From contig OZ237736.1 in the NCBI GenBank assembly GCA_965178125.1, positions 1,426,001 through 1,490,000 on the forward strand: a stretch of DNA of 64,000 nt, given 5' to 3'. Numbering within the stretch: position 1 is the stretch's first letter; each line of letters begins with the position of its first letter. The stretch is from Bilabrum cf. latius. Taxonomy: Eukaryota. Of the stretch, positions 1 to 64,000 are shown piece after piece. Position numbers and translations under genes: made by a program. The notes beneath the pieces were generated by a model. It had not been told where the DNA came from. It ran no database searches and saw only the letters and a list, made by a program, of their open reading frames with translations.

Positions 1-3000
1 CTGCTGCCCGTTGCGGATGAAAAACTCGCTCTCGCGCACCACCATGGCGTAGGTTGGCAGCAGCACCGACTGCACGAACTTGACGAGGAGGGTGGGGATG
101 AGGGACAGGAACACAACCATGGGCACGGTGAACCAGAAGGCCGCGCTCCCGAAGACCTTGCTCATGATCCCCTTGGAGCCCTCGGAGTCGAAGTAGTCGA
201 TCAGGTACGCCACGGCAGGCCAGGAGGCAGTGCTGAGGAACGTGAAGCACACAAAGATGATCTCGTGCTGGTAGGTCTCGATGGCGATGCGGATGTTCAC
301 CACGCACACCACGATGCTCATGAGCACGCTACCAAACCCAAAGATGCTGGCAGTGTACCCGTCAGGCTGCGCGGACTCTCCCATGGCTAGCACGCACAGG
401 AAGAAGATCAGCAGCGACTCGTACACAGACTGGAAGAGCCAGCGGACTGCCACGTAGGAGTTGAAGTGCTTGCGGAGGCGCCCAGAGCTGTACAGGGCAG
501 GGAACCGCTGCGCCGAGTCCTGGTCCACGTCCTGGTCCATGGCTCCCACCGCAATGATGGCCACGCCAGTGAACGTCATGTTGTAGGCCTGTGTGGCGAA
601 CTCGGGGAATACCTTCTGTCCGGACCAGCCCGTGTAGATGTTGTACCAGTACTGCACCAGCGTGAAGAGGCTGTTCTTGTAGAAAACAACCAGGATGAGG
701 ATGGCCATCCGCATGTAGTTCCAGCGGCCGTGCACCAGCAGGAGCTTCTGCAGGAAGCGGAACTGGCCGAACGAGTAATCGGAGGCGTTGGCGGCGCTGT
801 TGCCCTCCAGCCCCTCGATGCCCACCCCCACGTGCGCCGCCGAGATCATCTCCACGTCGTTGGCGCCGTCGCCGATGCCAAGGCAGCACGAGTTGGGCAC
901 CTCATACTTGACCAGCTCAAGCACCGTGCGCTTCTGTGAGGGCTAGCAGCGTGCACCGATCACGCTCGTGCACCGCTGCAGCATCTCAAGGAAGGCCGCC
1001 CTGCGGTCCCTCTTGAAGTCGAGGTTCTTGGACATGACGCCGTTCGGGTACTTGGCCGTGTCCGCCTCGATCTCCTCGTAGCCGGGCCAGTCGAGGAAGA
1101 AGCTCATCGAGCCCTCGTCCACGACGAGCGCGAGGGGTCGGGAGTTGCCGCCAGCGTACTTGACGAGCAGCATCACCAGATCAAAGGCAAGCACCCACTC
1201 CACCACGTCGCGCTTGTCCTGCGCGGCCTTCTCCTTGTTCTTCTCCGTCTTGGCAGCGCGGACCCTCAGGTCCACCTCCTTGATCTCGCGATAGAGACCC
1301 TTCACCACGGACTGCGCCGCGTTCAGGACAGACTGGCTGACTCTGCCGTCCTCGCCCCGCGTGGGCACGAGGAAGTCCCTGAGCTTGGTCAGCTGCGTCT
1401 CGCGCACCTTGCCATACGGGAGCGGGGAGCGGCCGAGCCCCATCGCTGGGTTGCTCATCGGGCTGACGGCCGCGCTGTCCCGCCGCACCGAGTCGAGCTC
1501 AGCGAGGGGGTTGGGCGACCGGTGGTTCCCGGGCGTGACTCCTCCTTCCTCCAGGTCCGCGTCGGGGGACTGCGACGTGGCCTTATCGTCGGCCGCCACC
1601 TTGCGCGAGAGGGCCGAGTGAGGCGAAGGCGCGTCCCCACCGGATGCAGCCGCAGCCGCGCCCCCCACACCCCGAGCGGAGCGCATCTTCGGCCCCCCGC
1701 CGAAGCTGGAGCTGCGGCTGGAGCGGCGCAGCGGGTTGGCATCTGCGTCCACGAAGGCCTGCCCCTTGCTGAGGGCCTTGTCCACCTCGCGCAGCAGCGC
1801 GCGCTCGAACCGCAGCGGGTCCCGGTTGCCCGCCTCGTCATCGTCGTCGCCAAAGAGCTTGCCGTAGCGCCACTCCCAAGTTAGCTTCTGCATCTCAGTC
1901 TCGCTCGTGAGCATCTGCACGCCGTATCCGATGTTGATGGCCGTGCCCTCCTTGTCTCCCGTGAGCATAAACACGCTGATGCCCGCGTCCGAGAGCCTGG
2001 AGATCGTGTTGGGCACGTCCTCCTGCAGGGTGTCTTCGTAGCCGACGGCTCCCGCGTACACGAGGTCCCTCTCGATCTTGTTGATGGCGTGGTTGATGAT
2101 GTTCTTCTTGGCCTTTTTCGCAGCCGATTCGTCGTTCGTGCGCTCCAGCATCTCCTTGAACACGCGATCCGCCTCCTTGCTCGCCGCGTCCCTCTCCTCG
2201 AACCACTGAGCGAACTCGTCGTAGCTCATGCGGCGGTATCCGAACACGAGGGTACGCAGGCCGTCCACGGCGAACTGCTTGCAGTGGTCCGCGGTCCTAT
2301 CGCGCATCGCGCGCTGCCTCTCGTGGAAGGACCTCTGGCGGTCGTCCATCCCGCGCAGAGCCTGGTCGCTGGGCAGCTGGTACAGCTTGGCCAGCACCTT
2401 CTGGTCGCTGCCCTTGGCGTAGATGGTCACGCGGTCCGGGGCGTCCTCGTCCTTGTCCGGGTCCATCATGACAATGCTCATCATGGCGCGGGCGCTCGAG
2501 TACGGGTTCAAAGAGGCGATCAGGCGGCGGATGTACACCTTCTGTCCGGTCTTGGGGTCGACCTTCTCGACCTCTACGGTGGGAAGCTTGGTGTCCTTGT
2601 CGTACGACCGCACCATGAGCTTGTAGCCGAGCTCCTTGGCGGCGTAGCAGAAGCAGATCTCGTCGCTGGAGTCGCCGGCCAGCGCGTAATCGCCGCTCTT
2701 GGCGTCTGGCTCTAGGTCCACCGTGGAGCAGAGGATGAAGGAGAGGATGAATTCCTCCAGGTCCTGGATGTGCTCGTTGGTCATGTCCCGGCCCTGGGCG
2801 TCCATCGTCCGCACCTGGGCCGTGCGCACCGCCTGCAGCTTGCGGCGCTCCCCGTCGTCCTCCACGAAGTTCACGTGGGGGGTCTTGTTGGACCTCTTCA
2901 TGTTCTCGATGCCGCGCTTGAGGATGATCTCCTTCTGCTTGACGTTCTGGCGGTCCGCCTCCGTGCGAGCCTGGCCCCTGGCGCTGATCACCGCGATCTC

Positions 3001-24428: not shown

Positions 24429-24574
24429 AACTCTCCGCCCAGCAGCAGTGCAAAGATGCCAATGTTTCAACGTGTGCGCGAGCAAACAGCACCCAACAAC
24501 AAATCGGAGCGTGTGGGTGCAACTCAGCAAATATAGAAAAGAGTTTGCCACAGTTCTGGCTAGTCAAGCTGTTT

Positions 24575-28714: not shown

Positions 28715-30621
28715 TCACATGCCTCCCTGCCTCTACCTCGGGGCGCAACGGATGATGTCATCCACACGCAAGATCATCTCAGCGGCCTCTGCAGCGCTCA
28801 GCAGCACGTGCAGCTTGAGCTTGAGCGCCTCGCACACCCCCAGCTTCTCCATGTCGCCCACGCCGCCCTTGGCGATGTCGATCCCCGCCCGCATGTCTCC
28901 AGAGGCCTGCGCGGCCTTGACCCTACTCACCAGCTCGGCCCCGTCGAAGCCGGCGTTGTCCGCCACGATGGTGGGCAGCTGCCTGAGTGCCCTGGCGAAG
29001 GCCTCCATGGCCAGCTGCGCCTTGCCGGGAACCTTTGCCGCCTCCGCCTCCACGGCCCCCGCCATGAGCACCTCGGCGGAGCCTCCCCCGAAGGTGACCT
29101 TGGAGGTCTTGCAGGTCTGCTGCAGCACTGCGAGGGCGTCGTGGAGTGACCTCTCCGCCTCGTCGATCATGTGGTTGGAGGCGCCACGGAGCACGACGGT
29201 GCAGGCCTCGCCCTTCTTGACGCTGCCGAACCGGATGAGCCTGTCCTCGCCGATGATCATCTCGTCCACCGACGCGGCCGCGCCCAGCCGCGTGGACTCG
29301 GGGTGGTCAAAGGTGGACGCGATCTCGGACCCCGTCACCGCCGCCAGCCGCTCTACGCCGTCAAAGTCGGCGTGCTCCACCGCCAGCACCCCGGCCTCCG
29401 CGAACAGCTGCAAGGGATAGTCGTAGATGAGCTGCCTGTTGACGAACACGTTGATTCCGTGCGCGACGATCTTGTCGACCTTGGCCTTCATCTTGGCCCT
29501 CTCGGCCTCCTCGATGGCCGCCACCTTGGCCATCGAGTCCACGCGCACCTTGGACCCGAAGATCTTGATCTTGTCCGTGTCCATGGACGTGTTCGCTACC
29601 ATGATCTTGGCGTCCTTGATGCTCTTGGGCATGCCCGCGGGGAGCGTCTTGTCGAGGATGAAGCCGTCGGCCACGAAGGAGTCCTTGAGGGCACCCCCTG
29701 GCTTCTTGAGGACCTGGATGAGCTCCAGGCTGAGGCTGTCCTTCACGCGGAGGATCGAGTCAACGGCCAGCTGGGCAAAGTGCTCCTTGTCGTGGGTCAC
29801 CAGCTTGGAGGACAGCGTGGTCCTCGCGATGTTGGCCAGGTCGCGCTTGAAGGCCTCCTCGTCGGCGGAGTGGTCCACAGCGCTCGCCTCCAGGGCGGCG
29901 CGGGCCACGTCCACGGCCTTGCGCCAGCCGTCGATGATAGTCATGGGGTGCACTCGCGCTTCCACTAGCTTCTCGGCCTCTCGCAAGAGCTCGCCGCACA
30001 ACACCGTCACGCTGGTGGTGCCGTCGCCTACCTCGTCATCCTGGGTGCGAGCAATATCTACGAGAACCTTGGCGGCGGGGTTATCAACCACTACAGATTT
30101 CAGAATGGTAGCTCCATCGTTTGTTACAGTGATAGAATCCGATGACTGAGAGCCCCCTGACATCTGCGAGCGAGATTGGGCCTCGACAACGAAAAAGCTG
30201 AAATCCGTGCAATCCAAGCACCAGTGCAGGCTGAAAACTGCTGGCATACCCTCACGCTTTGCAAAATTTTGTCCATTCCTTTCGGTCCCAAAGTAGTCTT
30301 TACCAAGTCGGCAATCGCAATGGCACCCATAAACGAAGACATCCTAGCCGTCTCGCCCTTGTCTACCGTGGCTTGCTGCTTTAAAACACCCTGCAAAGAC
30401 ATTAAAGTAGAGAGCATACATTAAGGACTTGCCAAGAAACAATCCGCAGCGATTGTACAAGGATTTTGTGCCAACTGCAAGCAAGAGCCAATGTGGCCCA
30501 GGTTGAATTCAAGGAGGGAGCCACTGGCTTCTGGGCCATGTGCGCCAACCAGGACCGTTCTCCCACAAAATGAATAAAAATAAACGAAATCAAGCAAATG
30601 ACTCACTGCTGCTGCCGCCAT
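28715..30621 (-). CDS. CCT2: T-complex protein 1 subunit beta (~532 aa)
   Basis: [63 protein letters not shown]. Introns 30391-30606 and 30164-30255 (alternative donor 30249). C-terminus CAPR[Q]RQGGM then TGA, matching the family APRxR ending. Confidence 0.95.
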
Positions 30622-43279: not shown

Positions 43280-43808
43280 TCAGTCCATCCCGTCCATACC
43301 AGCCTTGCTCCGGGGATCGTTCTGGGCAGCCTCGCGCTTCCTCTTGATGATGTCGTTCCGGCCCTTGTTCGTCTTCAGCTTGATGATCTGAAGGTTGGAG
43401 GGATGGAACGGGATCTGCACGGTGTTACCGGACTGGCCGCTCTTGGTGCGCTTCACCTCCTCGATGTACACGACAAACTTGCGCCTACAAACCCGAGTCA
43501 CCTTGCCCTCCTGGCCGCGCACGGTGCGCTTGTTGCCTACCATCACGCGAACGCGGTCGCCAGTCACCACCGGCATGCGAGAGACGTGGTGCTCCAGCTT
43601 CTCATCCTTGCTCAGGCTGCACACCATCATCTTGTGGCGCCTCTCAGAGTGGGCAGAGAAATGAGCCTTGCGGGCCTTGCGCCGGGACGAGCTGACGTTG
43701 GGGCTGCGACGAGAGGGGCAATGCTGGATAAGGCAAACATCCGATGGATCAGGCCAACTGCACAATCAAAGGATACCACGGCCGCATTCCTGCTTACTTG
43801 AACTTCAT
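43280..43808 (-). CDS. RPL26: 60S ribosomal protein L26 (uL24), 144 aa
   Basis: MKFN|PNVSSSRRKARKAHFSAHS (intron 43704-43797), GD.V.V..G, EGKVTRV.R.K, HPSNLQIIKLK. No TAG codons; ends at TGA. Confidence 0.95.
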
Positions 43809-45370: not shown

Positions 45371-45667
45371 GCAGGGCAGAGCAGGTTTACCACGCTGCCA
45401 CGCTTCGTGCAGGTGCACGTGTGTGCATTCCACAAGGATGAGTGCTGCGACTGCCAGTGCGGCCGAGCTGGATGAAGCCCATTGCCGGGTGTCGTGTCTC
45501 GAGCTCGAGCTGTGCCCAAGTTGTAGCGAGGCTGCCCCGATGTAGGGCCGCGCCTCATGTGTCCGTGACGAGACTCGATTCGATCAATAACTTCTTGCCT
45601 TTACGGTGCACATACACGTACACGTTTGTACTGATCGCATGCCCCCACATTAGACTCTATTCGAGGA

Positions 45668-47389: not shown

Positions 47390-47425
<36 letters not shown>

Positions 47426-50400
47426 GTCCAGTCGCGGTTTGGGAGTGCTGGGGGAGGCCAGTGCGGCGGGTGATGCCCCAGCCGGCGTGACCACGGCCTG
47501 AGCCCCTACCTCCGTACTGGCCCTCTGTGCCCCGAGGGCGTCCCCCGCCCAGCTCCCCACCGCTAGCTGTTCCTTGCCCCTGGTCCCTGGGCGGGTTGGT
47601 AGCGTGGAGACCGGGCCGGATGGAGCCCCAGCAGCAGTGAATGACGAGGGAGTCGATGAGGACTAGGACGTGGGCGTGAGCGAGGGCTTCCCGGGCGTGT
47701 TGCCGCTGTTGCTAACGCCGAATCCAAAGCCAGCGACTGGCTTAGGTGCTTCGCCGGGACGCATACAGGCAGCTTGTTCCATCTCTGCGCCCCTCGGTTG
47801 GGCCAACATGCCGAGCGTGGTGGGGTCTGCCTGCTGCATCGCTTGCTCCGCGAGGGCGAGGGCGGCCTGCAGCCCTGGCGGCGTGCTCGCCCTATCTTGC
47901 TATGGGGCGGCAGGGCTGCCTAGTCGCTGCTCGTCGGACCGGTTCTGCTGCGTGTCTCCTGCTTCCTCCACGGGTTGGGCGCGCACTAGTGGTTCTGGTG
48001 TTGCATCCTCAGCAGACTCAGGGTCCACGCCCACCTTTTCGTGATCAGGCTAGGCAGACGAGTGCTGCATGTCTTCTCCATCTGCAGCAGTGGTCTGATT
48101 CGTCTTCGACTGCAAGGTACTCTCCGGTTCATACTCAGCTGCCTATTCGGTCTGGTTTTTCGAGGGAGCATCAGCAGAACCGGCGGCTGACTCTCTGGAG
48201 GGCTGTGCAGCCGAACGCGCGAACTCGCTCGAATAGAATGGCTGAACAGGGGAGTCTGTCAGCGCGGGTGGCGGCTGCAGCACCGCTGGGGCAGTCGCCT
48301 TGGCTTGCTGGATGGTGCCGACCACCGCCGCGTCAAGGGCTGCTGCTGCAGAGGCCGCGTTGCCATGCGCACCTGCAGCGCTGAAGATGCGTCCATTCGA
48401 AGCAGAGCCGCGCGGCTTGCTCAGCGGCGTGACTTTCCTTCGTGCGCGACCCGAGGCAGCCCCTCTCGCGGGCGTTTGTTCACGACTGCCGCCAGCGCCC
48501 ATGCCAGTTCGCGTGGGCGTGGATCCGAGCCAGCCTCGGGCCGCAAGATCCCCGCTGGCTTGTCCCCGGTCCGCTGCAGACGGGCCGCGCGGAGGCGTGG
48601 CTGGGATTCGACCAGCCGACCGGATACCTGCACCCAGCTGCTTTTCGACCGGGAGCGACAGGCTGCTCCTCCTGTGCCTCGGCCTGGATCGCAAAGAGCG
48701 AGGGCGTCTCGGGGCCTTCTGGGCTGACTTGGGCTTGGGCTGCCGACGCTAGCGGCTGGGCTGGGTCTAGGCATGCGCACGCGCTCCATCGGCAGACGTC
48801 GACCTGTTTCTGCGTTGCCCACTGGCCGCCTCCCTCTGATGTCTGCCGCCCGCGTGCTACCTGCGTCCATCGCTCGGCAGGGACGGTGGTGCCACCTTTT
48901 CTTTGCTTTCCAATTCGCTGGACTTGGAAACTCGGGGCGTAGCCCGTCGCTCCGAGGCTGGCGATGCAAATGCCAGGCCTGTTGCGGACGTGTCTTCAAC
49001 TGTGGCGGGGGCAGGCTGCGGGCTCGAGGGCCGGGCGTAGGCATTCACGGGCGATTCCGACCGTCGGGTGCGCCTATTTCCAACGGTATGGGCAGCAAGA
49101 TCGGGCGCCGGCTCCTCCACGATTACTTCTGCATCGCTAGTGTTGCTCTGCACCGTCACCTGGATGCCGCCCCGGGTCCGGAACGTGCGGCAGGGTGGCG
49201 CAGAGGAGCGTTCCTTTGCAGCGAGCGCTGCTCCTGATACACTTGCACCCACAGCAGGCAGGAGGTTTGCTCTGCCTACCCTTGGAGCTGCCCTTGAGGC
49301 TGCGTCTAGACCCCCTCGGCCTGCGCCGGCTCCAAAGTCCAGACGCCTTGCAGTGGATGCGGGGGACACTGCCGCAGTGGGACTGCCTGCCTCCAATCCG
49401 TCTCCATGGACATCCATGCGCTCGTCACGCTATACTGTTCCCCCGTCCCTGCTACCAGCTGACGGGTGGATCGGCGTGGCCTCCATCCCCGAGTCATCTG
49501 CGCCGCCGACTCCCATCTGACCATGGAGTCCGTCCAGTTCCGTCGGTGCAGCGTGGCTGCGAATCGGCGACAATTCCAGCTCTGGGTGGCGCATGCATCC
49601 CCGCGGCGACTGCCCTTGCCCTGCTTGGAGTACCGGCTGCAACAAGGAATCCCCATCCCCATCTCCATTTCCATCTCCCTGCGCACCAACCCCGTGCCCC
49701 CCCCCGACCGCCTCAAACCCCGAGCGCTCGGCCATCGATTCATCCCGCTGCCCTCGCGCGTTCACCGGGGAGAGAGGCGACGCAGGGCCAGAGGCAGTGC
49801 GAGAAGCACTCGCTCGCGTGGGCGTAGAGGGGGCACTGCGAGGCCCAGGGCTGCTGAGCGGCCCGGCGACGGAGGACTCGTTGTTCGCACCACTTGCACT
49901 TGCACTAGCACCAGCACCTGCACCTGCATGCCCTGCACCTGCAGTAGTCGGAGCTGGACACGTGGCGTGTTCGTCGACGCCACCACCCTCGGAGTTGCCA
50001 CCTTGTCTTGTTCCCTGGGAATGCTCTCCGCTGGAAGACACGGAGAAGCTGCATGAGGTGGCAGCGGCCTATGCACGGGATTGAGCAGCGGAACCGGCGT
50101 CTGCAGCCGCCGCAGGACCCAGCTCCAGCCGGTCCTCAGCCGGCAAGCTGCCTGGCTGCACCTGACCCCAGCCCGCCCTTGGGGGAGACAGGCTCACAGG
50201 GGAGGAGTGAGGGGACTGTACCACCTGCAGAACGACACCTTGGTCCTCCTCATCGCCCGGCATTAAAGAACCCGTCTCACCCGGAGCAGCAGGGTCGTCG
50301 AGGCCGAGACCAAGCCCCAGGCCGAGAGCCAGGCTGAGGCGGGGCAGCCTGCTTGCAGATCGACCGCTGGTGACACCACCTGCCGTGCACGGGGAGGAGA

Positions 50401-52153
50401 AAGCGCTGCCATTGCCATCGCCATTGCCATTGCTTGCTCGAATCGAGACTCGCCGCCCTTGGACTACGTGGTGCCCACTCGTAAGCGTAAGGGCAGGCGT
50501 GTCTCCATGGCGACTCGCAGCCGTCCCACGGGGAGCAGTGGTCGGGGAAGAGGACGAGGACGAGGATCCTGTCGCCACCAGGCTCGGATCCAGCCGAGGT
50601 GGCGATGGTGCGAGCAAGACAGGCTGCGGGAGGCCGGGCGGGCCTAGCGCCCTCTCTCTTTTGCTCCACCCACGGGGAGCAGCGGGCCTATCCCTGGCAT
50701 GCGTGCCCGCGGCTCCTGCTGGTGCTGCTGCATCGAGATGAGTTCCACCGAGCCATGGAACTGGGTTGATTGAAGAGATGTTCTCGGCCCCTGCACCTGC
50801 CATTGCCACGGCTGCGGCAAGACGAAGCTGCAGCGCAGGCAAAGTACCGCCGTTCACGTCATCGGTGTCCGTCGCATCAGCACTGGAGCGCGACAGCCAC
50901 AGTCCGCTACCAGTGCAATCCACACCAGCGCCTCGCACCGGTGTAGGTCTCACGATTCCTCGCACCGGCGCATGTGTACTGAATGGCGCCGCGCTGTCAC
51001 TGGTCTCATCATTGCACTTGCCTGTCCTATCCTCCACAGCGGGCTATACCCCCCCCGGGTGGCTGCCGCTCCCACTTCCACCCCTGCTCTGAGAACACAG
51101 AGAAGACACCAGCCTGCCAAAGGAGGGTTCTGCGGCGGGATCCGAACCGAGCTCCCAGCTGTCCTCGCGCGCCTGGGTCTTCCCCCCGGCCCGCGACGAG
51201 TCGTTTCGCTCCCTCCCAAACCCCGCCACGGGCCCGGTGCGGCTCTCGGCGGAGTCGTGAATCCCAGCGCTGACAGCGATGCCCAAATACTGGCTGTCAT
51301 CCTCGTCTTCCTCCCCCTCCTCGTCCTTGAAGTCGAGCTGCCTGATGGTGCGCGCCCCGAAGGGCGGCTGCCTCTGCCTGCCAGTGATGCTCTGCACCTT
51401 GCCGGCAGACCCTGGGATCACGTTGCTGGACAATTCGCCGAGAGGCGCGCGACTGCTCGTCTAGTTGGCATCTGTGCTGCTGCCAGTGCCAGTGCCAGTG
51501 GCAGTGGCACTCCGACAACTAGAGCCGCTCTCTCCAGCCGACTGGGTGCAATCGTGCGGGCTTCCAGCGGTGGCTAGCCTGGGGCATGGAAAGGCTTCAA
51601 CACGTCGGGGGCACATAGAATATGATTGCGATTTAGCGAATGGAACAGGTACGATCCGTTCAGAAACGGCAAGGGAGCACGCAGCTCGGGCTCACCTGGC
51701 TATGTCAGATTCGCAAGTCGCAGCAAGCTGGCCGTCTCCAGCAGCCAGAGCACTGTCTCGCTTGCGCAATAGGACTCGAACTATTTCACGCGCCACGACA
51801 GCTGACCGGATATGTGCGGGTTTGCTCTACCGCGTGTTTTGGGCAGCATCTGCGAACCTGACCCGGTGCGATTCGGCACCAACGGCGCTGTCTCCCTCAA
51901 GGACTTCATCAAAAGAGCTAAGTGGCAAGTCTAGAGAGGTATGCTATAATATACTTGGAATTTCCCCGGCGGCAACCCCAGCTTCCTCGCAGAGGTCGCG
52001 CAAGGAGGCCCTTTCCTCCAACAGCAACAGCCTCAGCTTTCGGTAAGCTTCCTAACCGAGTCGCCCTTTGCCGTGCTCTCGAAGCAAGATGGAATAAACT
52101 TGGACATGCAACAATGAGACTGTATCTGCATGCCCGCGAATCGCAGCTAGCAT
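45668..52153 (-). CDS. Large low-complexity (S/G/A/P/R-rich) hypothetical protein, ~2100 aa
   Basis: Successive minus-strand ORFs share one frame and are separated only by TAG (20 counted). One phase-compatible intron at 51579-51695; ends at TGA 45668-45670. Start uncertain (52153 or 52255). Confidence 0.65.
46286..46402. repeat. 39-bp perfect tandem repeat x3, coding FAAATGTA[Q]GVVD on the minus strand
   Basis: gtctactacaccctaggctgtacccgtggctgcagcaaa repeated three times. Confidence 0.93.
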
Positions 52154-52349
52154 CCTGCAGGCCCTGCAATAACCCAAACGGCAGGGAATCTGCTCCGATC
52201 GGCGATTCGGATCTCTGCATGATGCCTCACTCCCAAGGAGCAGTAAACGCAGCATACAGCCGTCATGGCAAACATAGAGGAAATATTTTCGCAGACATTC
52301 TTTAATATTGAGACATTATCGTGCTTGCAGGACGCGTCCGGGAGTGGTG

Positions 52350-54533
52350 ATGCAGTTTCAGTTCTCGACAGCCAGGACCTGGCCGGGCAGCGATTCTAGT
52401 GTGGCAATGACCAGCAGTTCAAGATATCGCTGTCGTACATTCATGCTGTCTGCATTGGGTTACCTATTGTATTTTTCGTGAGCTCTCACGCAAGAAGCCG
52501 CGCTCTTCGTTTTATCGTTTGCTTGCAGAGAGCGAACCATGCCTGTTTCCGTCGTGCTAGCGCAGGTTTTCATGTTCTACAGCGTCTGTGTCGTCACCTC
52601 GGCCCGCGTGTAGTTTAGTTTGCTGCTAGGCTATCTGGACCACGTGCTTCCGTTCGTTCGGAAGTATCCCACGGAGTCCACGGAGCACGTGCTGCTGGCT
52701 CAGCGGACTCAGGTGGACATCGCGGCCGCCTACCAGGTGGCCAGGGACGAGAAATCGTACCCTCTGCCGCCCCCGAATGGAAATGACCACCACTACGGCC
52801 TCCGCGCGCGGGACCTTTCCCTCGCCCAGGTGCGCCCCGTCAGCTGGCGCTCCATGGCGGTCGAGGAGGTGAAGGACCTGGCCGACCGACTGGAGCTGCT
52901 CGAGGCAGAGGCCACGCAGAGGGCCGGCCTCAGGTTGCAGGCGCGGGGGCCCTCCGCACTGGACGCATCGATGCACGGCGGGGAACAGGCCAGGGCGAGG
53001 AGGGCGAGGCGGAGGAGGGCGCTGGTCCGGGGGCACGCGCCCTCGGCTCCTGGCGTGCTCGCGGATAAAGAGGAGCTGCTGCGGGCCATGGCCACGAGGT
53101 CGGACGAGGCCTGGCGGTCGCTGTCCGTGGCGAGACAGCCGGCAGAGGGGGTCTCCGAGCTCATCACTCGACTGGGCCGCGCGTGTGCCGTAGTGCGGGA
53201 GGCGCTTGACGCGCGCAAGCAGCAGCAGGAGCAGGAGCAGCGACTGCAAGAGCAAGGCTATGCCAGTGGGAGCAAGAGCCAGCGGGGTCAAGATGGGCCG
53301 TCTAGGGACTCGCCAAGCGGTGCCGATGCCTTGGAGCATAGCCCCGACGACGTCCCCGCCGCTGCGGCTCAGCGCCTCAGGGAACAGATGCACCAGGACC
53401 GTATTAATTCCGGATCCACACCCCAAGGGCAGGATTCCTCCCAGTCTTCCACGGGCCCAAGGCGGAGAAATAGATCGGGCGGCAAGCGACCACCGCCCCC
53501 ACCACCCCCTCGCCGCCCCCTCGGGCAGCGACAGACCCCTCCGCTGCGGCCCTCCAGCCCGCCCTCAAGACCCGGCGAGGTGCGGCCCCCGCTGGCAGAG
53601 CACCTTCGTAGGAGCCGCCCTCGCCCTCGCCCCGACGACACGGCAACCGCAGCCAGCGCTGCAGGTGACGGTGAGGTAGGGGCTGGCACGAGAGCGGCGG
53701 ACGAGGCTGACCATCTCGGGGAACAGAGCAGGGAACAAGCCCAGGAGGTCGATGGCCCTGACAGCTGGGACGCGTTGACTCTGCTCCGGTTCTCCTCTGA
53801 CCTGCGCCGCTCGGTGGACACCTGTCTGTTCTGCGAGAGGCTTGCGGAGGACTGGCTGCGGAGGGACTTCGAGCAGCTGCAGGCCGGGCTGAGGACCATG
53901 CTGCGGCTGGCCGCCTGGCTGTGCGAGGAGAGGCTGGAGGCCCGGACGGGGGCGGGCCTGGGGGCGGCCCAGGGCTGGCCTGGTGCAGCAGCAGCCGCAG
54001 CGGGGACCCCCGGGGCCGGTGTGACGAGTGGGTCCGGCATGCCCTGGGCCTCCGCCTCGCCCGCGAGGAGGCAGCGGCGGAGACGCCGGAGCTCTCTCGA
54101 CAGGAGCCCGGGCGCAAGGCCACGGACGGGCCACTCAGCTCTGTGGTCAGTCGCAGAAACGGAAGCAGCATCGGTGACTGCGGTGCCAGGGGCCGGGGCG
54201 GCGGGACTCAGCCTCCGGGTGGGTGCATCGCCCGGAGGTGCGGGGCGTGGGGGTCCGGGATCGCCGAGGCGCCGGAGCACGATCGGGCCGGGGAGCAAGC
54301 TCTCCAGGCAGCTGAGCGTGTCCTCGAGACGCGCGCTGGACGGCAGGTTCGAGCCTCAGGGGGGTGCCCGGGGGGTGCGGCTAGGGGACCAAGGGGAGGA
54401 CGAGAGGGGGGGGCGCGGGGTGGCTCTGTCGAGCGAGCGGCACGGGTTCACCCCTGCCATGCAGCGGCTGCAAGAGGTGGAGGGCGACGAGGACGAGGAT
54501 GCCGGGAGCCGGGAGGGGGCCCAGAGCAGCTGA
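52350..54533 (+). CDS. Hypothetical protein with N-terminal hydrophobic segments
   Basis: ORF 52620-54533 extends upstream through TAG 52611 and a probable intron 52478-52528 into hydrophobic FMLSALGYLLYF / VVLAQVFMFYSVCVV. Ends at TGA; start uncertain. Confidence 0.6.
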
Positions 54534-54709
54534 AGGCTGCGGGTTCGCATGAATCATGCTAGTTGCAGCTCCCTCTGGCGTTAGGGCCTGGGTTCAACCC
54601 GCGAAGCGCATGCATGCATTGCACGACTGCGGCAGTTGCAGTTGAGCTAGTCTAGTGGTGGCTTCCGTCCCACATCCTTGGCCCTGTGGAATTAAAAACA
54701 ATAAGCTGT

Positions 54710-56002
54710 ATGCATCGGCTTGGACAAGAGGCGCAAACTAAGCTGAGATAGCACGCCCGATCCTTGGTACGAGCCTACCGCCCGCCATCCTGGGCTGTAG
54801 GCTCGTACCGCCATCCTGAAGGGCTGCGTGGCGCGGATTCGCAGGTGTGGCTTGGTGCTGAGCATGTGACCCCGATACAACCGTGGTTTCTCTCAAGCAA
54901 CGACCTACCCGATGGCTACAGTGTGCATATCAAGCGCGATGACTTTTTGCGGGGCGGTGCTAGCGCTGGCAACAAGGTACGAAAGCTCAGTTTTATCTTT
55001 GCCCAAGCCCTAGAGAATGGTTGCGATTCCATTATATCATGCGGAGGAGTGTAGAGCAACCACGCTAGGATTACGACTTCTATGAGCCGGGAACTCGGCC
55101 TCGAGCCCTTGATGCTGTTGCGATCCGCCACCCCCGAGGACGGCCAGCAGGCAGGTACACGCGGTAACATGTTTCTTCACCATGCGCTTGGCTGTCGTGT
55201 ATACCTGACCAGACAAGATCCATTCGAGACTGGCCTGCGACCAAAGATGGAGCGGATCATAGAACAGCTGCGAGTCCGGGAAGGCCGGCACACGCACCTG
55301 ATCGGGGTAGGTGGGTCCGATTGCACGGGTCTCTGGGGCTACATTGACGCGTGGCGAGAACTTGAGGAACAAGGCGTCTCTGAGCGGTTCGATGACGTGG
55401 TGGTGGCCGTGGGCTCGGGCGGCACGGCAGCGGGACTCGCCATCGGGGCGCATCTGGCGGGCTCCCCTGTCAGGGTGCACGCAGTGGCCGTGTGTGACGA
55501 CGCAAAGTACTTCCACGACCACACCGACGGAATGCTGCAAACAATCGGCCTTTACAGAGAAGCAGACGACCCGAGCCCAGGCGCAGCCGCAGGCGGCCCC
55601 GGCCCGGGTCTCGCTCCCACTGGCACTCGGTCCCGCGAGATCCTGGACGTGATCGAGGGCTACAAGGGGGCGGGCTACGGCAGAGCGAGAGCGGGCGACT
55701 ACGATTTCATACAGAGAATCGCGACTGAGACTGGCGTGCTCCTGGACCAGACATACACAGGAAAGGCGGTGCAGGGGATGCTAGCCGAATTGAAAACGAG
55801 TGCCGCTGGGGACAGTGCGAGCAGAGGCGGCGATCCGCAGGCTGCGGGCAGGTTTCGTGGCAAGCGAGTCCTGTACGTGCACACTGGAGGGGCCATGGGG
55901 CTGATGGATGGCCGCGCCGATTACCATTTCAATCGAGGAACCGTGTGGCCGTACAGTGACGCGTGCGAGGGGATCGGCGGAGCGGCAGACAGTACAGCAT
56001 GA
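54710..56002 (+). CDS. D-cysteine desulfhydrase / ACC deaminase family PLP enzyme (~430 aa)
   Basis: TPIQ, IKRDD, GNKVRKL (PLP lysine), CGGV[Q]SNHAR, GSGGTAAGL, LDQTYTGKA, YVHTGG. In-frame TAG at 54749 and 55052; ends at TGA. Confidence 0.93.
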
Positions 56003-56225
56003 AGCACTGCAGCTGCTGCTGTCGCGATCGATCGGGATACATAGTTTTCAGAAGGTACTGCTTGCTGCTAACTTGTCACGCATATTGTTCCTGTGCATTC
56101 CGGCATCTTGCAGGCTCCAAACCGGATCCACCAGCAGGCTCCAACTGGGTGGATTTCCAGCCCGACGGGGTACAGCCTCCAGCTACTGCTCCCATCTGGT
56201 CCGGGTAGCTTCAGATGGACATAAC

Positions 56226-58448
56226 TCAGATGGACTCTGCAGCCCTGGTCCCTTCGCCCTCCCCGTCGGCAGCCGCGCGATCCCCGCTGCTCGATCCCGT
56301 GCCAGTGGTGGGGTCCTCCAGCTGCTCGAACCCCGGGGCCGGCGCCGCGCCGCGGACCGATACCTGCGCATCAGACGACGGCTGCATCGCCCGCCCCGAA
56401 TATGCAGAGCCCCGCCCCGCACCTCCGGCGGCCCCCGCACCTTCGGTGGCCCCGCCGCTGCTGCCCCCCCCGCCGCAGCACACATAGTACAGCATCATCG
56501 CGAATGCCCCGCCGAAGACAAGCCCCAACACGAACGTCCCCGCCGCCAGCCCCACCTCCTCCCTCAGCTGCGCCTCCGTGCGCGAGGGACAGTCGGACTG
56601 GGCCGACGGCGGGGCCACGCTGCCCCCGCCCCCATCTTCGCCGCACAGCGACCGGTCGGGCACGGGGGCCGATGCGCAGTAGGGCGCCGTGTCGCACACG
56701 AGGTTCTCCAGTCCAACGTCGTTGAGCGAGTGCTCCGTGAGAGACTCGAGCGTGGGTCCGTGCGGGTCAAAGAACGCGAACGAGACGTCGCTCCGGAAAT
56801 CCTTCCATTCCCCCTCGGCCCCTGACACCGGGCTGCCGTCCTCGTGGCACCACCGCCGCCTCCCGCGGTATTGCACCTCGAGAGGCACGCCGGACATGCC
56901 ACCCCCGGGAACAGCGGTCCTGTACACGGGCCACGAGTCGGCCACGAAGAAGAAGCTCGCCACCCCTTCCGAGCACACGAACCTCTCCGAGGGGTCGAAG
57001 CGGGGGCCCAAGGGAGGCCCGTCGTCGTCACCCCCGTCCTCTCCCTCCTCCTCCCCGGCCGCCACCTCCTGGGCCTCCTCCTCCTCCGTCTCGAAGAAGA
57101 GCCCGTCGGCGGCCGAGGCCCCCGTCCGCTGGAACTGCGCGTCAAACTGCATGGCAGGCACGGTCCCGCGGGCCGTGACGAGGCCCTTGTAGGTCACGTT
57201 GAAGTCCACCCCGGGAGTCCCGTGCAGCCCGAACAGCTCTAGGGATGGGCGCAGGTGTCCCGTGTCGTCCGTTAGAATGTCCTGGGCGTTTCCAGCGTAG
57301 AATACCTGGCACTCAACGGCTAGATCGCCGTCCGCCGGGTCGATCGCTTCCCCTGGAGCCGCGGGCGTGGCTGGCCCCGCGGAGATGCGGTACCTGACCT
57401 TGCGGTTGAGGTCTTCGAGGAGCGTGACCCGCTCGCCACCGGGGGCCAGCACGTCCATGCGCGCCAGCTGCCGCTCCGAGTCGAAGAATTCCCGCACGTG
57501 CGACGTGCTGCCGACCCAGCCGGTAGGAGCGTCTGCCGCCAGAGCGGGGCCCGCGGGATCCACGTACATTTCCGAGGTATAGTCGAAGCTGGTGCTGTAG
57601 GCCGTGGGGAAGGCCGGCATCGTGGGCTCGGGGGACGGTGTGGGCACCGGGGGCGGCGAGGCCGCAGAAGGGGGCCCGAAGGAGCGCGCGGGGACGGGGT
57701 TGCAAGCCGCCCCCGGGGGCCTCGAGAGGGTGGGGGGGGGGGCCTCGGGCCAGAACCGGACGTACTCGTACGAGTGCTGGAATCTGTGCACGTCCACCAC
57801 GTCGCCGTTTGCGGCGAAGGTGATCCTGGCCCCAGAGACGAGGGCGCGGAGGGGCACCCTATACGGCGAGTGCTCGCCTTCGCCCGATCCGGGGCCGCGG
57901 CGGAAGGAGAAGGCTTCCCAGCCCTCTGCCGCGAAGCTGAACAGGATGTCGTACTCACTGTCAGATCGACCCCCGTTTGGTAAGGGCCGAGATTGGTTTC
58001 GTACCCTGACGTCCCACACCTCGGCCCTGATGCCTCGTACCATACGCATCCCGATGAATTGCGGGTTGAACTGCGCCCCAAATCGGAAGAAATCGGTAGA
58101 GCTCTCCAACCTGGGGGCAGAGCTGGTGTTTCCTGAGAATGGGCCATACGTTTCAGGGGAAACTTCGCACCGATCCTTGTACGTGATCAAGTTATCGTGG
58201 TCCGAATCTTCAATGGTGTATCGCCGCTCCGTCCGAAAATCGTCAATGATCGCTACTAGCACACCTGCGCGTCGTTCTTCCCGCCTCTGCCAGTTGTTGT
58301 CGTGGTCAAACCACTCACGGATCGATAGACTCTCATTTAACTCCAAAAAATTGGCCTCCACATCCACTGAGAACTATTCAGGCAGGATGGGCAGCTCGCG
58401 AGCCAGCGTGCCAGTCACCATGATTCCAGCTAGTGCTAGAACTAACAT
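56226..58448 (-). CDS. Signal-peptide and single-TM protein with two related beta-rich extracellular modules (possibly ependymin-related/LolA-like fold), ~740 aa
   Basis: Signal peptide MLVLALAGIMVTGTLA is only in frame through TAG 58374 (LPILPE[Q]FSVDVEAN). Repeated IREWFD/VREFFD and G...RG...(W/F)D patterns; TM LAAGTFVLGLVFGGAFAMMLYYV. Ends at TGA. The fold assignment is tentative. Confidence 0.7.
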
Positions 58449-58512
58449 CTACGAAATAAAAGGGGGTCTGAATGGCCTGTGTGGAGTACATGCCGGGTGG
58501 CGAGGCTGCTAG

Positions 58513-58678
58513 GGAGCGATCAAGAGCGACACGTCACCGCAGGCTGCATCGGCTGCTTCATGCATACAGCGGAGCGATCAAGAGCAACACATCACCGCAG
58601 GCTGTATCGTTTGCTTCATCCATACAACGGAGCGATCAAGAGCAACACATCACCGCAGGCTGCATCGGCTGTTTCACG
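58513..58678. repeat. 58-bp imperfect tandem repeat x~3, non-coding
   Basis: ggagcgatcaagagc(g/a)acac(g/a)tcaccgcaggctg... begins at 58513, 58571 and 58629. Confidence 0.88.
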
Positions 58679-59762
58679 CTAGACGAATCCTAACGGCGTG
58701 CGATGGGCCGGGCAAGTCACGAGATCGAAGTGCACACATCCCAACGTCTAAATCTGTATTTATATCTTTCACGCCATACAACTTCCACCCAGCCAGCCCT
58801 TCTTACTCACGTTGTTCGGAGTGCGTGCTCGATCATGTGGTTTTAATCTTCTTCTTGAATGAGGGGTTTTAATCTTCTTCTTGAAAGTTGAATGAGGGGT
58901 TGCAACCGCTGGCGCAAGTGCAGCTGTGCGCCGCGGTTGGCTAAACAGGTGAGGAGGTTGGTTCAGCGATGGTAATCGGGCCAGGGCACGACGGAGCAGA
59001 CGACGAAGTTGCTGGTGAAGGAGGTGGATGGACGATCCCCATGGACAGAGAAACCCTGGGAGTCGGAGCCGATTGAGTCATCCAAGGGAGCAGCAATTCC
59101 AAGGATGAGGTAGGTAGTGCACAGGATCAAGGAGGAAGTGCAAAGGAAGGAACTGAGTGGATTCCTGGACGCAATGGAGAACGCATGGAGTAGGTACCCG
59201 ACGCGGTGTCGGATGCTGAGATGGCGAGGAACATCCTTGTCAGCATGGCACTCAATGTACCTGCCGTACGGGCGCTCGATCTTGAGGTTAAATCGCGCAA
59301 TTGGACTCTCTGGAGATAAGGCGTACGCACCCAGTGCTATCCCAGAATAAAACGCAATCCTGGCAAAGGTTGACATGTGAATGGCTAGCAGAGGGATCGT
59401 AGCGAGGGAAACGGCACAGGATTCCAGCGAGCATGTCGAGCGTCGCCCGAGCCAAGCAGTGTCGAGCCTGGGTCGAACGGCGGCGGCAGTCTGTTCGGTA
59501 GCAGGGTATCGGAAGCAGGGGATCGAAAGCGTATTACGTCTGGTCCAGGTACAGCACGATCCAGCAGCGGTACGTAATGACGATGATCTCTGGATCGGAT
59601 GGCGGCCCGGGCCCGGGTGGTGGTGGAAGAATCGATCATCCACGTTGGTGCGGGGAATCGAAAGCCATGCAAACATGCGTATACAACAGAAGTGACAGCT
59701 CCAATAGCAACCTTGCTCACCTACCTGCTTCGTGTGTGCCTGCCAAGTTGGGCCACGGCCAG

Positions 59763-62700
59763 TCAGGACATGGTCGGCGCCAGTCCCAGCTCCCTCATGC
59801 GGTCCGCCAGCACGACCTCGTGGTCCTGCGTGATCTGCAGCAGCCGAGTGCTCGCCTCCCCGCGCTCCACCGCAAACTTTTCCTCGAGCGACCGGCGCCG
59901 CTTCGGGTCCTTCTCCTTGGCCAGCGCCGCCTCTCTCGCGTCCTCTGCCCCCTGCTCCTCCTGAAGCACCCGGAGCAAGTGCTCGTTCTGGTCCCTCCGG
60001 AGCTCCTCCAGCTGCTTGGCAGCGGCCCGACGGGCCTCCGAGCTACTACTACTGCCGCTGTTTCTGGTTCTGGTTCCACTCCCCGGCGCATCTCCCGGCA
60101 TCGCACCACTATGTCCCCTTGTTGCCCCGCGGCTGGCATCGCCGACAGCACCGCCCACGGCCTCTTCGAACCCGTCCAGGTCTTCCAGGTCTTCCCCGCC
60201 TGCATGCACGCCATCGTCGTACGCCTACCCATCTCCATTCTCGCCCGATGGGTCTGCTGCACGAGACCTGCTGCTGGCCCGAGAATGACCCTGCTGCAGC
60301 AGTGCAGGCGTCCTGCCGTACAGCTCAGGGGCAGCGCCAGGCCCCTCCTTCCCACTGCCTCCAGGGCCGCCCAACCGGCTGCTGCCGGGGCGCCGCCTGC
60401 TGCTCGACGAGGCGCCCGCGGTGCGGGGCCTCCTGCCTCTGCCACGGCCCTTGGCTCCCCTGCCCCTGCCAGTGCCCTTGCCAGTGCCCCGGCTCCTGCC
60501 CGAGCCAGTGCTCGGCCTGCCCTGGCCCCGGCCCCGGCCCACCGAGCTTCGCGCCGACTGGCCCCCGCGGCCGCCATCGATCGGAGGCAGTGAGGCACCG
60601 TGCCTGCTGTTCCCCGGCCCGCCATGCACCCCACGCTGGCCCCCACTCCCACCAGCACCCAGGCTGCTCGCGGACACCGCCTGCCGCGCCGCCCGCGCCG
60701 CCCTCCTCTCGATCCGAGCCTCCTCGCCCTCGTCCACGGGGCCCCTCGGGGGCACGAACCGAGCAGAGGCAGTGGAGGGACGCTCCCGCCCTGGACCCTT
60801 CACCCTGGCCCCGGGACTCCCATGGAGCCTCTTTCTGCGGCCACCGCGGACAGAGCCGGGGCGGGATCGGGCTCCGTCCCCGGCCCGGGTCGGTGACCCC
60901 ACACTGGGGACACCCGAGTCGCGGGGGTGTCGCCGAGGGGGGAGCGACAGTGGGGAGCCGTGGATGTCCCCGTCCCTGTCCCTTCCGCCCCTTCCGCCTG
61001 TGATCGAGGGGCTGCCCACTGATCCCGCCTGCGAGCCGCCTCCTCCTGCTCCTCCTCCTCCCGCCCGCGCTCTCGCCTCAACCGCTTGCACGTCGATGCC
61101 CATGGAGGCCGCCAGCTCCTTGAGCTTGCCCGTGTCCTTCTGCTTCTTGATGCGGTGGAACTCCTCCATGAGCTGTTCCTTCTCGTGCTTGCTCTGCTGC
61201 AGGGCCAGGTGCTTCTGGCGCCGCACCTCCTCGCGCTGCCGGCCGACCTCTTCGGCCCTGCGCGCGGCCGCATCGAGCCGCAGCTTGGTCCTCAGCTTTG
61301 CGTACTCCTCCTTGCGCTGGACCCTCCTGATCGCCTCCTGCCTGGCCTCTTCCTTGGCTGCCGCGCGGCGGTGCTTGGCCGCCTCTTGCCGTGCCAGCTC
61401 CTTCCGGGCCTCCTCGGCGCGCTGTTCCTTGGCCTCTAGCTGGCGGAGCATGGCCTCCCGTTTCTCCCTCTGCTCCTGCATGTACTGCTCCAGCGCCTGC
61501 TTGCGGTGGGCCTCCTTGGAGCCCTCTCCCCCGTGCATTGCCCTCCACTCCTTCTGCTTCTGCTCGAGGAACTTCTCCACGTACACTTCCTTTCTCCTCG
61601 CCTTGTCCAGGATGGCCTGCTTCCGCTCCCTCTCCTGCTCCTCCATCCGCCGCTGGGTCTCGCGGATGTGCCTCTCTTTCTCTGCCGCCTCCTCCCGCGC
61701 CTTCCTCTGCCTCGTCTCCTTCTCCATCTCGAACTCGCGCTGCCGACGGGCCACATCGGCGTCCCGCCTCGCCTGCTCCTCTGCCGCCCGACGCACCTGC
61801 TCCTGCTGCTGGGCCTGGGCCTGCGCCACGCGCTCCTCGGCGATAGCTCGCTTGCGGGCCGCCCGATCCTGTTCCTTGCGGCGCTGCTGCTCCACCTTGG
61901 CCTCTCTTTGCTTCTCCTTCTCGCGCGCCTCCCGCTGCCTCGCCTCTGCCTCCTCCCTCTGCCTGCGATAGATCGCCTCCTTTTCCTTCTGAAACTGCTC
62001 TGCCCTCCGTGTCAGCTCCTGCTGCTTCTTGATGGCCTCTCGCTTACGGCGCCACTCCTCCTTCTTGGCCTCGGCCGCCGCGCGAGCAGCTGCCTTCGCC
62101 TCGCGCTCCATCACCGCCTGCAGCTCCCTCTCCTTCTCCTCCTCGCGCCGGCGCCTCCGCTCCTCTGCGGCCTCCCGCTCCCTGATTGCCCGCGCGGCCC
62201 TCTCTTTCCTCTGCCTCTCCAGGGCCTCCTGCCTCTGCCTCGTGCGCTGCGCCTGCTGCTCCATGCGGCCCCCGATGGCGGCCATCTGCACCTCGTGCTC
62301 CAGCATCCGGGCGATCTCGTCACGCTGGTGCTGGCGCATCTTCTCGAGGGCGTCCTGTTCCTTGCGGAGGGTGCTGTCTGCGGCTCCCACTGAGCTCCTG
62401 CGCCTGCCGCTGCCCCTGCCAGCTCCGATCTGCAGGACGACGAGGTCTTTCGCACCAGACGCGATTATCGCATCGCGCGCCTGGATCACGGCTTGCAGCC
62501 TCTCTGCGAGCTTGTGGGGAACATTGGGGCAGTGCAACATGCATGGGGTGCTTCGAGCGGCAGGGCCGAGTCGGGTGCCGCTGCGGCTTGCAACATACCT
62601 CTTCTCCTCGCTTCGAACCGCTCGAACCGCTCTCGCTGCACGTCAGAGTCCTAACCGACCTCTCTAAATGCATCATAGTCGCGGAACACTAGCTCGTCGG

Positions 62701-62929
62701 GATCTACACCGTGTCGCAGGCAGGCTTCAAGAGAGCGTGGCGACGTGAGCGGGGGTCTAACCGACCCGCGCTCGTCGAAAGAGTCCAACGAAATGCCCCC
62801 ATCGGCTTCACTCTTTGGAACAATCCGTAATACCGGCAAATCACTGCCAGCTCCGCCGGCGGCAGGTCCAGAGCCGCCAAGCCTCTTCCTAGACTTTTTT
62901 GCCGACTTTGATTTCGGTGATCGAGGCAT
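59763..62929 (-). CDS. E/R/K/Q-rich coiled-coil hypothetical protein (~1023 aa)
   Basis: MPRSPKSK start, TSPRSLEACLRHGVDPDEL motif, intron 62504-62598, long charged helix. In-frame TAG at 62651 and 60225; ends at TGA. Confidence 0.8.
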
Positions 62930-63260
62930 ACTAGCGCAATTTTTCCGACTCAATACCTTCAAACCTAATTATGAGAGGGAAGGGTTATCGCGAAGAGCCC
63001 CGCTACGGTGTTTGGCTTGCAGTATACGGGGTGGAAGAAGCCCGAGCCGTTCAGTGCAATGTTGCGAGTACTTTTGGTCCGGATCCGGAAATAGAATTCA
63101 AACCGCCCGGTGGGCTTTATGCGGTAATTTGTCTGTACTATAGAAGAGTAGGGCAAGTCTGCAATACATTTTCGCAATATCGTGACTGTGCCGAGTTGTA
63201 GCACGCTCAATTAACGATCTGCATCAACTCTGTGACCTGCGGCGGCCCCACCATCGAGCG

Positions 63261-64000
63261 ATGCCGGTCCTCAGTCGTCCGATGCAGCTGCTGACATTCG
63301 TGGGAGGCCTCTCGCTCACGGCCGTTGCGATCCGGTAGTTTGGCCGTGGAGTTGCTAGGCATGCGCGGACGGTTGGCTTGCATGGCAGGGATGCGCGAGA
63401 CGCTGAAGACGACGAATCTTCGTCGGCCCAGCAAGGCGCCGGATCGTAGGCCCCGGGCAGCCGACGAACGCGGCGTAGGGGCCTGGCAGGTATTGCTAGG
63501 ATTGTTAAGATTTGTTGTCCCAACGGGATCGCATCGATAGAAGGTTTCTGGGCAGTGCTGTCGGCCGTGCTGATGCTCGTTCGAACGCAGGCAGACCTGC
63601 TCTCGATCAACAAGCAGACCGAGATTGAGCTTGCCATCATCCAGAAACGTGTCCGGTCCTTCGAGTCCCTCCTCGTGGAGGTCGCGCTGATCGCCATCCC
63701 GGTGAGCGCGGCAAACGCCATGATGCGGTACGCCCTGAAGCAGCTCGAGCACCGCCTGCAGCTCAACCTCACGGCCCACCTCGTCAGGAGGTGCACGGAG
63801 GAGAAGGTCCTGTACCGCCTCACACGGGTGGACGACCGCCTGCGGGAGGGCCCCCAGCACACCATCTCCGAGGACGCGGCCGAGTTCGCGCGCGTGCTCG
63901 TGGAGCTCTACCGCCGCGTGGTGTCCTCCCTCACCAACATCGCCATCTACTGCTACCGTCTCGGGCAGTCGATCGGCGTGGGCGCTCCCGCGGCGCTCAG
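63261..64000 (+). CDS. Peroxisomal ABCD (PMP70-like) half transporter, 5' part; runs off the window
   Basis: Not in the supplied ORF track. IVKICCP..SIEG, LVRTQAD, IELAIIQK, PVSAANAMMRYALKQL...NLT, YRLTRVDDRL..PQHTISEDAAEF resemble the ABC_membrane_2 domain. In-frame TAG at 63336 and 63447. Confidence 0.8.

Follow-up and report, generated by a model that had tools for sequence, protein, structure and literature searches.

How does a TAG triplet, ordinarily a stop codon, come to occupy the position of a conserved glutamine in the interior of a gene for a metabolic enzyme? This question is raised by a 64,000-nucleotide stretch of the forward strand of contig OZ237736.1 (positions 1,426,001 to 1,490,000; NCBI GenBank assembly GCA_965178125.1, Bilabrum cf. 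latius), hereafter termed the window, in which a gene of the D-cysteine desulfhydrase (DCyD)/ACC (1-aminocyclopropane-1-carboxylate) deaminase family of pyridoxal 5′-phosphate (PLP) enzymes contains two in-frame TAGs. The window is very probably nuclear DNA of a GC-rich, intron-poor eukaryote that reads UAG as Gln and ends its genes at UGA or UAA, such that the TAG at position 55052 would be an ordinary Gln codon. The features of the gene, in window coordinates, are as follows.

54710..56002, plus strand: gene for the PLP enzyme (translation P0242), a single exon of 430 codons followed by TGA, of the DCyD/ACC deaminase family

54749..54751, plus strand: second in-frame TAG, codon 14 of the translation, located 5′ of the conserved N-terminal motif

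54974..54976, plus strand: AAG encoding Lys89, the lysine of GNK, aligned with the PLP-binding lysine of the family (near-invariant column; ggnK of 4d8t)

55040..55069, plus strand: motif C-G-G-V-(TAG)-S-N-H-A-R, encoded by TGC GGA GGA GTG TAG AGC AAC CAC GCT AGG

55052..55054, plus strand: the TAG in question, codon 115 of P0242, which occupies the Gln position of QSNH in the alignment column

55754..55756, plus strand: TAC encoding Tyr349, aligned with the catalytic Tyr287 of Salmonella DCyD (invariant column; ldpvYtgka of 4d8t)

56000..56002, plus strand: TGA, the stop codon of the gene in the translation

The initial annotation of this DNA had placed the TAG at the conserved Gln of the QSNH motif, and this placement is borne out: the triplet lies in frame at 55052-55054 within a 430-codon open frame that ends in TGA. 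The motif itself begins at 55040, the start of 55037 given in that annotation merely including the preceding TCA codon. Conservation of the column was scored in an alignment of a first translation, P0001, with the best 120 of 5886 database matches. The P0001 translation starts 18 codons downstream, such that residue 97 in its numbering corresponds to residue 115 in P0242, K71 to Lys89, and Y331 to Tyr349. The column under the TAG is near-invariant, with Q in 111 of the 117 aligned sequences (T 3, L 1, W 1, N 1; three further sequences are gapped), and the lone Trp row is a badly aligned fragment. The adjoining columns, also at n = 117, contain G 117, G 101, S 116, N 117, H 109, and R 117. In the structures, the TAG faces the Gln of QSNH in 4d8t and 7ysk, but a His in the Pyrococcus protein 1j0a. 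Together with the Thr, Leu, and Asn rows, this His indicates that the Gln column is nearly, not fully, invariant. Taken alone and scored on column counts with one pseudocount (112/137), the DCyD site makes Gln ∼28 times as likely as Thr, 56 times as likely as Leu or Trp, and 112 times as likely as Glu or Tyr. The claim that this single site identifies Gln rather than Leu, Trp, Glu, or Tyr therefore stands as a 56- to 112-fold preference and falls as a proof, since other residues also occur at this position (T, L, and N, and H in 1j0a).

The residue that faces the TAG in the Salmonella typhimurium enzyme (PDB 4D8T) is Gln77. In PMC3344862, Gln77 is described among the active-site residues, Lys51 as the PLP-linked lysine, and Tyr287 as having a catalytic role; the Q77H variant is inactive on D-Cys, and the Pyrococcus homologue has a His in place of Gln77. 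The inactivity of Q77H on D-Cys places this Gln under constraint. In common with the Salmonella enzyme and with ACC deaminases, P0242 has the sequence features of the fold-type II PLP family, namely the GNK lysine, the QSNH loop, and the YTGK tyrosine. It differs from Salmonella DCyD in being distant, in carrying low-complexity insertions, and in scoring under the cut-off of the D-cysteine desulfhydrase family model TIGR01275. This model is the best NCBIfam match of P0242 (1.1e-65), and its cut-off is not reached (222.1 bits vs 289.4), whereas the match to Pfam PALP (PF00291) is well above threshold (6.3e-24; 85.3 bits vs a cut-off of 35). Against the DCyD, ACC deaminase, and CuyA equivalog models, P0242 likewise scores far under the cut-offs, and it is thus placed in the broad family, with no specific enzyme named. 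The PDB matches are exclusively ACC deaminase and DCyD (1j0a, 7ysk, and 4d8t), the match to 4d8t being distant (phmmer E 3.8e-29). P0242 is a predicted fold-type II PLP enzyme with putative DCyD or ACC deaminase activity.

Lys89, Ser116, Asn117, His118, and Tyr349 are all kept, as judged from the homologue alignment and from 4d8t. Apart from its two TAGs, the gene appears functional, and it is an intact enzyme gene rather than a pseudogene. The N-terminal family motif Y.PP.WA falls downstream of ATG 54710 and ahead of the next Met, and this ATG is the earliest in a contig from sequencing run X5 (described below), which starts at 54696. Translation from ATG 54710 requires that the TAG at codon 14 be read through as well. 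The possibility that an intron acceptor lies near 54845, upstream of this exon, was considered and dropped, because the contig from X5 is colinear with the window and the Y.PP.WA motif runs upstream to ATG 54710.

In-frame TAGs are found throughout the window, which has a G+C content of ∼63%. With standard stops, the longest reading frame spans 1184 residues; with TAG opened, frames of 2230, 2020, 2007, and 1802 residues are obtained. Opening TAA leaves frame lengths almost unchanged, and opening TGA makes frames longer overall, with the longest reaching just 1415 residues. Overall lengthening is expected in the latter case, since in GC-rich DNA no stop triplet is commoner than TGA. The long TAG-open frames contain Pfam domains, including REJ, TALE homeobox, the P4-ATPase C terminus, CCT/TCP-1 (3.6e-140), protein kinases, FGGY, and WD40. 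In total, 17 reading frames (∼17,300 codons) contain 89 TAGs, no TAA, and no TGA. In-frame TAG occurs at ∼5 per 1000 codons vs 6.1 out of frame (CAA is at 6.9), and TAA and TGA, both absent in frame, occur out of frame at 1.6 and 15.1 per 1000 triplets, respectively; these out-of-frame rates were computed with the DCyD frame off by one base, which affects the values slightly. The presence of 89 TAGs in 17 frames that lack TAA and TGA, despite a TGA rate of 15.1 per 1000 out of frame, is not explained by chance. Relative to the other presumed Gln codons (CAG 634, CAA 120), TAG (89) makes up about one-tenth. In-frame TAGs are found in the DCyD-family gene, in the genes for a P4-ATPase and for CCT-β, and in RPF2/Brix and CDK-like kinase exons. 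The base 3′ of TAG (C 31, G 24, A 20, T 12) is distributed as it is after CAG (p = 0.087), and this lack of a preferred base speaks against a local read-through signal. The pattern matches the code of NCBI table 15, under which the DCyD gene is translated unbroken.

Two further TAGs fall at sites where homologues inform the identity of the encoded residue.

1-3996, minus strand: P4-ATPase (flippase) exon

943..945, minus strand: TAG of the P4-ATPase, in GARC(TAG)PSQKR

28715-30181, minus strand: CCT-β exon

28733..28735, minus strand: TAG of CCT-β, in CAPR(TAG)RQGGM, five codons before the TGA

A search of the full library with the last 532 residues of the P4-ATPase yields P0243 at 85% identity and P0244, P0245, and P0246 at ∼50%. 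In an alignment of 105 of the 150 matches listed, the TAG column contains S 65, R 16, T 13, A 6, and Q 4 (104 aligned, one gap), and the four Gln rows are precisely the four nearest homologues among the matches listed. With the addition of P0394, all five of the five nearest homologues read GARCQP[SA]QKR, and metagenome contig L001 encodes its P4-ATPase Gln at this site by CAG. In CCT-β, when sequences are anchored on the preceding motif, the site contains Q 85, E 11, R 9, K 8, P 2, and A 1 in 116 matches, a count that leaves out seven sequences that are too short or lack the motif. The sequence CAPRQRQG is found in P0395, which is 96% identical to the window CCT-β, and in P0396, both cluster mates of P0122 (discussed below), and CAPRQRQ is found in P0125 (74% identity). 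TAG thus aligns with Gln at three of three tested conserved-column sites (DCyD, P4-ATPase, and CCT-β). When the three sites are combined with a pseudocount of 1, Gln is ahead of the next residue, which is Arg (by 2.45 log10 units) with the whole P4-ATPase family and Glu (by 3.7 log10 units) with the P4-ATPase subfamily alone. The initial annotation had taken TAG to be a sense codon for Gln, and this reading, supported by the DCyD column, gains two sites outside that annotation.

The remaining question of whether UAG still serves as a stop anywhere can be addressed from the gene ends. Among 16 gene ends in the window, TGA is used at 13 and TAA at three, and none needs TAG; one of the TAA stops lies immediately 5′ of a TGA. 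In the window, UAA and UGA are retained as terminators. An alternative, which we regard as unlikely, is that UAG is ambiguous, being read as Gln inside genes and as a context-dependent stop at some gene ends; context-dependent codes have been described (PMC4967479; 10.1101/2022.04.12.488043). In favor of this alternative, the last TAG lies at most 45 codons before the TGA or TAA in five of 15 genes, as compared with ∼3.1 expected from the TAG density, an excess that is not significant. The 160 codons that follow these five last TAGs have G+C contents at the first, second, and third codon positions (GC1, GC2, and GC3) of 0.69/0.53/0.73, similar to the 0.67/0.56/0.70 of gene bodies (12,287 codons). 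In contrast, the coding pattern is lost in the 40 codons past TGA or TAA stops (0.50/0.55/0.52), and the GC3 of the post-TAG tails differs from that of post-stop sequence with a binomial p of 8e-8. The post-TAG tails therefore look coding, in GC1 and GC3 in particular, and within the window nothing demands termination at TAG, though the number of ends is just 16 and UAG may on occasion have both roles. Moreover, at the CCT-β TAG, the relatives have Gln and read on. An ambiguous code is also favored by the third feature below, at which the frames of two database proteins, P0398 (95% identity) and P0399 (52% identity), both end.

18501-24563, minus strand: coiled-coil gene of 2020 codons, whose protein has a long tandem array of near-identical repeats (ELAAAKAAHEKAV...)

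20153-20162, minus strand: E-TAG-Q-TAG-TAG-V run in the unique flanks of the coiled-coil gene

18612-18614, minus strand: TAG at codon 1984 of the coiled-coil gene, 36 codons before the TGA, where database frames P0398 and P0399 end

A search with the C terminus of this coiled-coil protein returned four matches only. The repeats contain no TAG and the unique flanks contain 18, and a comparison of TAG with CAG between repeats is consequently impossible.

A sense reading of TAG as some other residue, such as Glu, Lys, Arg, Ser, or Leu, is very improbable. Individual sites do lean this way: the wide P4-ATPase family column is mostly Ser (65 of 104 aligned), the CCT-β site also contains Glu (11), Arg (9), and Lys (8), and the TAGs of the RPF2/Brix exon face other residues, as described below. 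Gln is, however, the single residue that occurs at all three conserved sites and in the nearest relatives at each; every alternative trails it by 2.45 log10 units or more, and Glu, Lys, Arg, Ser, and Tyr are each found in 0 of 117 sequences in the DCyD column.

A genomic TAG could also be a true stop that is removed from the mRNA by U-to-C editing to CAG before translation, which would likewise yield Gln at each TAG. This explanation was considered in light of Logan contigs from four sequencing runs (X1, X5, X6, and X8), which were compared with window positions 45000-64000; X8 has no cover over the DCyD TAG. None of the following differs from the window at any base: an 11,204-base contig of X1 over 47436-58599; the X6 cover, of another study, over 54316-55144; and, from a third study, a gene-sized X5 contig of 1330 bases that spans 54696-56025 gap-free. 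No variant at either DCyD TAG is listed in the X1, X5, or X6 contigs. None of the sequencing runs that contain window DNA is listed as RNA. The nature of the X5 and X8 runs is indicated by the following feature.

45024-45153, plus strand: GT..AG intron of 130 bases in a mitochondrial-carrier gene, with exons at about 44500-45023 and 45154-45420

A junction that skips 45024-45153 is present in X5 and X8 contigs and absent from X1 and X6, X1 retaining the intron, and excision of these bases restores a continuous mitochondrial-carrier frame. The GT..AG junction indicates that both X5 and X8 hold spliced cDNA, and the X5 contig over the DCyD gene is probably a DCyD transcript with the UAG retained. 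The mitochondrial-carrier bin is the deepest bin in both X5 and X8.

The lack of any difference over 54696-56025 in a run that carries spliced cDNA argues against editing, as does the state of near-identical database proteins, which are cut at TAG positions. In fact, two near-identical CCT-β proteins, P0122 and P0397, end at CAPR, i.e., at the TAG of the window. For the coiled-coil protein, P0400 (97%) ends at the TAG of codon 1808, and P0398 (95%) extends from just past this TAG to just before that of codon 1984. The boundaries of these four proteins fit what gene calling under the standard code would produce. Taken with the X5 contig, these boundaries leave mRNA editing as an extremely improbable account of the TAGs. 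Finally, although a single C-to-T change at a CAG-like position would give one in-frame stop, a pseudogene or a sequencing or assembly error is in effect refuted by the 89 in-frame TAGs in 17 frames without TAA or TGA, the retention of all catalytic residues, and the identical sequence in contigs of three studies.

Several points weigh against the assignment of UAG to Gln with UAA and UGA as the terminators. All of the evidence on the code is taken from one 64-kb window. No tRNA gene of any kind was detected in the window by ARAGORN or Rfam, nor was any other RNA family, and eRF1 is not encoded in it. The X5 run is rated 'RNA? (probably DNA)' by the run tool, with a depth of only 7.4 for the contig over the DCyD gene. 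Gln is found beside TAG codons at 13 of 178 positions, as compared with 98 of 1505 beside Gln codons and 139 of 2266 beside Glu codons, an enrichment that is too weak to discriminate. Against solved homologues, the first TAG of the RPF2/Brix exon faces K/H/N and the second faces D/E/D, the latter perhaps suiting Glu slightly better than Gln, and the TAG at codon 1808 of the coiled-coil gene faces Ala in the 52% homologue, within a poorly conserved stretch. These three non-Gln sites lie in variable columns and appear uninformative, amounting to neither contradiction nor support. Lastly, the frame of P0399, at 52% identity, stops exactly at the codon-1984 TAG, which could have been, or could still be, a stop; either a TAG codon has been kept over that distance, or a former TAG stop is now read through.

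If UAG is indeed read as Gln, it would be decoded by a putative tRNA-Gln with the anticodon CUA, and eRF1 would have lost recognition of UAG. The change may have arisen through codon capture under GC pressure, in which TGA would be favored as a stop and TAG would become rare. A distant relative of the window organism is of interest in this regard. Metagenome contig L001, of 73% GC and with a P4-ATPase ∼50% identical to that of the window, is the sole locus obtained from a metagenome scan with alignment A3; a metagenome scan with P0006 as the query found no locus. Its two long frames are as follows.

1525-5457 of L001, plus strand: TAG-free frame of 1311 codons

7003-11043 of L001, plus strand: TAG-free frame of 1347 codons

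The four triplets that flank these two frames are all TGA. L001 had been considered as a relative with the standard code on the basis of its TAG-free frames, a proposal that was dropped because TAG is nearly absent in every frame: counted over all frames, TAG occurs at 0 and 0.37 per 1000, and TAA at 0. With TAG scarce in all of its frames, L001 is silent on its own code. It is nonetheless a GC-rich relative in which TAG has nearly vanished, the 'codon disappearance' state that the capture model demands. Together, the near-loss of TAG in L001 and the TGA-dominated stops of the window make codon capture a reasonable route.

The lineage of the window organism was approached through CCT-β. The nearest named CCT-β proteins are those of stramenopiles, with identities of 70% for Cafeteria, 67% for oomycetes, and 64-67% for ochrophytes. 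In a maximum-likelihood tree of 31 rows, comprising the window sequence and 30 of 123 sequences (the named ones and the nearest others), an 11-row clade (support 100/99) takes in both the window and the 96% relative, with Cafeteria as the sole named member. This clade is separate from one that contains the oomycetes and ochrophytes (99/99). The tree represents a single gene with thin sampling, its named rows including no labyrinthulomycete, placidid, or opalinid, and the window organism is provisionally regarded as a Cafeteria-allied stramenopile. The database fragments at 95-97% identity share the TAG boundaries of the window, from which a close relative probably has the same code, and yet this relative probably uses a standard Gln codon at the CCT-β site. 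DNA identical to window positions 53000-58000 is found in runs under four different organism labels, from several studies, and metagenomes labeled 'protist' or 'algae' contain small shares of it as well. Either several names may be in use for this one organism, or it may be a protist that often turns up in cultures as a companion or contaminant.

The window contains additional features that lie outside the long frames, together with very long coding stretches of low complexity.

43283-43765, minus strand: ribosomal protein L26 exon, with no TAG

30914-31492, plus strand: RPF2/Brix exon, with two TAGs

7441-7992, minus strand: exon for the N-lobe of a CDK-like kinase, with one TAG, located in an insertion

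4073-4532, minus strand: two upstream P4-ATPase exons, with no TAG

5202-7409, minus strand: low-complexity coding stretch

27016-28551, plus strand: low-complexity coding stretch

45668-51691, minus strand: low-complexity coding stretch

The extra exons outside the long frames indicate that the genome has some introns. The low-complexity stretches contain RSRSPPRGDFRG repeats, RS-rich tracts, GLGLGL runs, and a triple AATGTAQGVVDF repeat, and no Pfam match beyond the kinase domain was found in them.

Codes in which UAG and UAA (together UAR) are both read as Gln correspond to NCBI table 6, and ciliates are among the organisms that use them. Similar to the window, such codes involve the capture of a stop codon by Gln, presumably via a derivative of tRNA-Gln. 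They differ from the window in that UAA is also Gln, whereas in the window TAA is found 0 times in ∼17,300 codons and ends three genes. Other organisms for which UAR = Gln is given in PMC11687900 are ulvophycean green algae, Hexamita, Streblomastix, and Amoeboaphelidium. Changes of UAG alone were first described, as stated in PMC5304391, for Leu in a rhizarian and for Gln in Iotanema, with UAA as the main stop. Further cases given in PMC11687900 are Scotinosphaera (Ser), phyllopharyngean ciliates (Leu, and Gln twice), and Protocruzia (Gln), and the cases listed there that split UAG from UAA are only Iotanema, a rhizarian, Scotinosphaera, and a few ciliates. Similar to the window, the fornicate Iotanema spirale has reassigned UAG alone to Gln, with UAA and UGA still terminating (PMC5304391); unlike the window, it is a metamonad with UAA as its main stop, whereas the window is Cafeteria-allied and has TGA at 13 of 16 ends. 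The phyllopharyngean ciliates and Protocruzia tuzeti likewise share the table 15 code, with UAG reassigned to Gln and UAA retained, but their stops are dominated by UAA, which accounts for 86.9-98.3% of stops in phyllopharyngean ciliates and Protocruzia (PMC11687900), whereas those of the window are mostly TGA, and the window is no ciliate by the CCT-β tree. A code in which UAG is Gln and UAA and UGA are stops is thus already known as a type, and the window would represent a further independent case in a new lineage.

Whether it is also the first of its kind in its group is a more tentative matter. A full-text literature search found no nuclear code reassignment in stramenopiles, most subscription journals being outside this search, such that a publication on the organism may exist; the word 'stramenopile' does not occur in PMC11687900. 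It is possible, though we would not presume it, that the window records the first nuclear stop-codon reassignment in stramenopiles, in which a Cafeteria-allied, GC-rich heterotroph and at least one close relative captured UAG for Gln and kept UGA as the main stop along with UAA.

Few nuclear codes depart from the standard one, and a split between UAG and UAA is rarer still. A further independent capture of UAG alone, in a different supergroup lineage that is GC-rich and prefers UGA, would test the need for UAA-dominated termination in such changes. If the reading of UAG as Gln holds, the organism would offer a natural pair of a UAG-decoding tRNA and eRF1 for study. In addition, table 15 is needed when this genome and related metagenome bins are annotated, as P0122, P0397, P0398, and P0400 are already cut at TAG in public databases.

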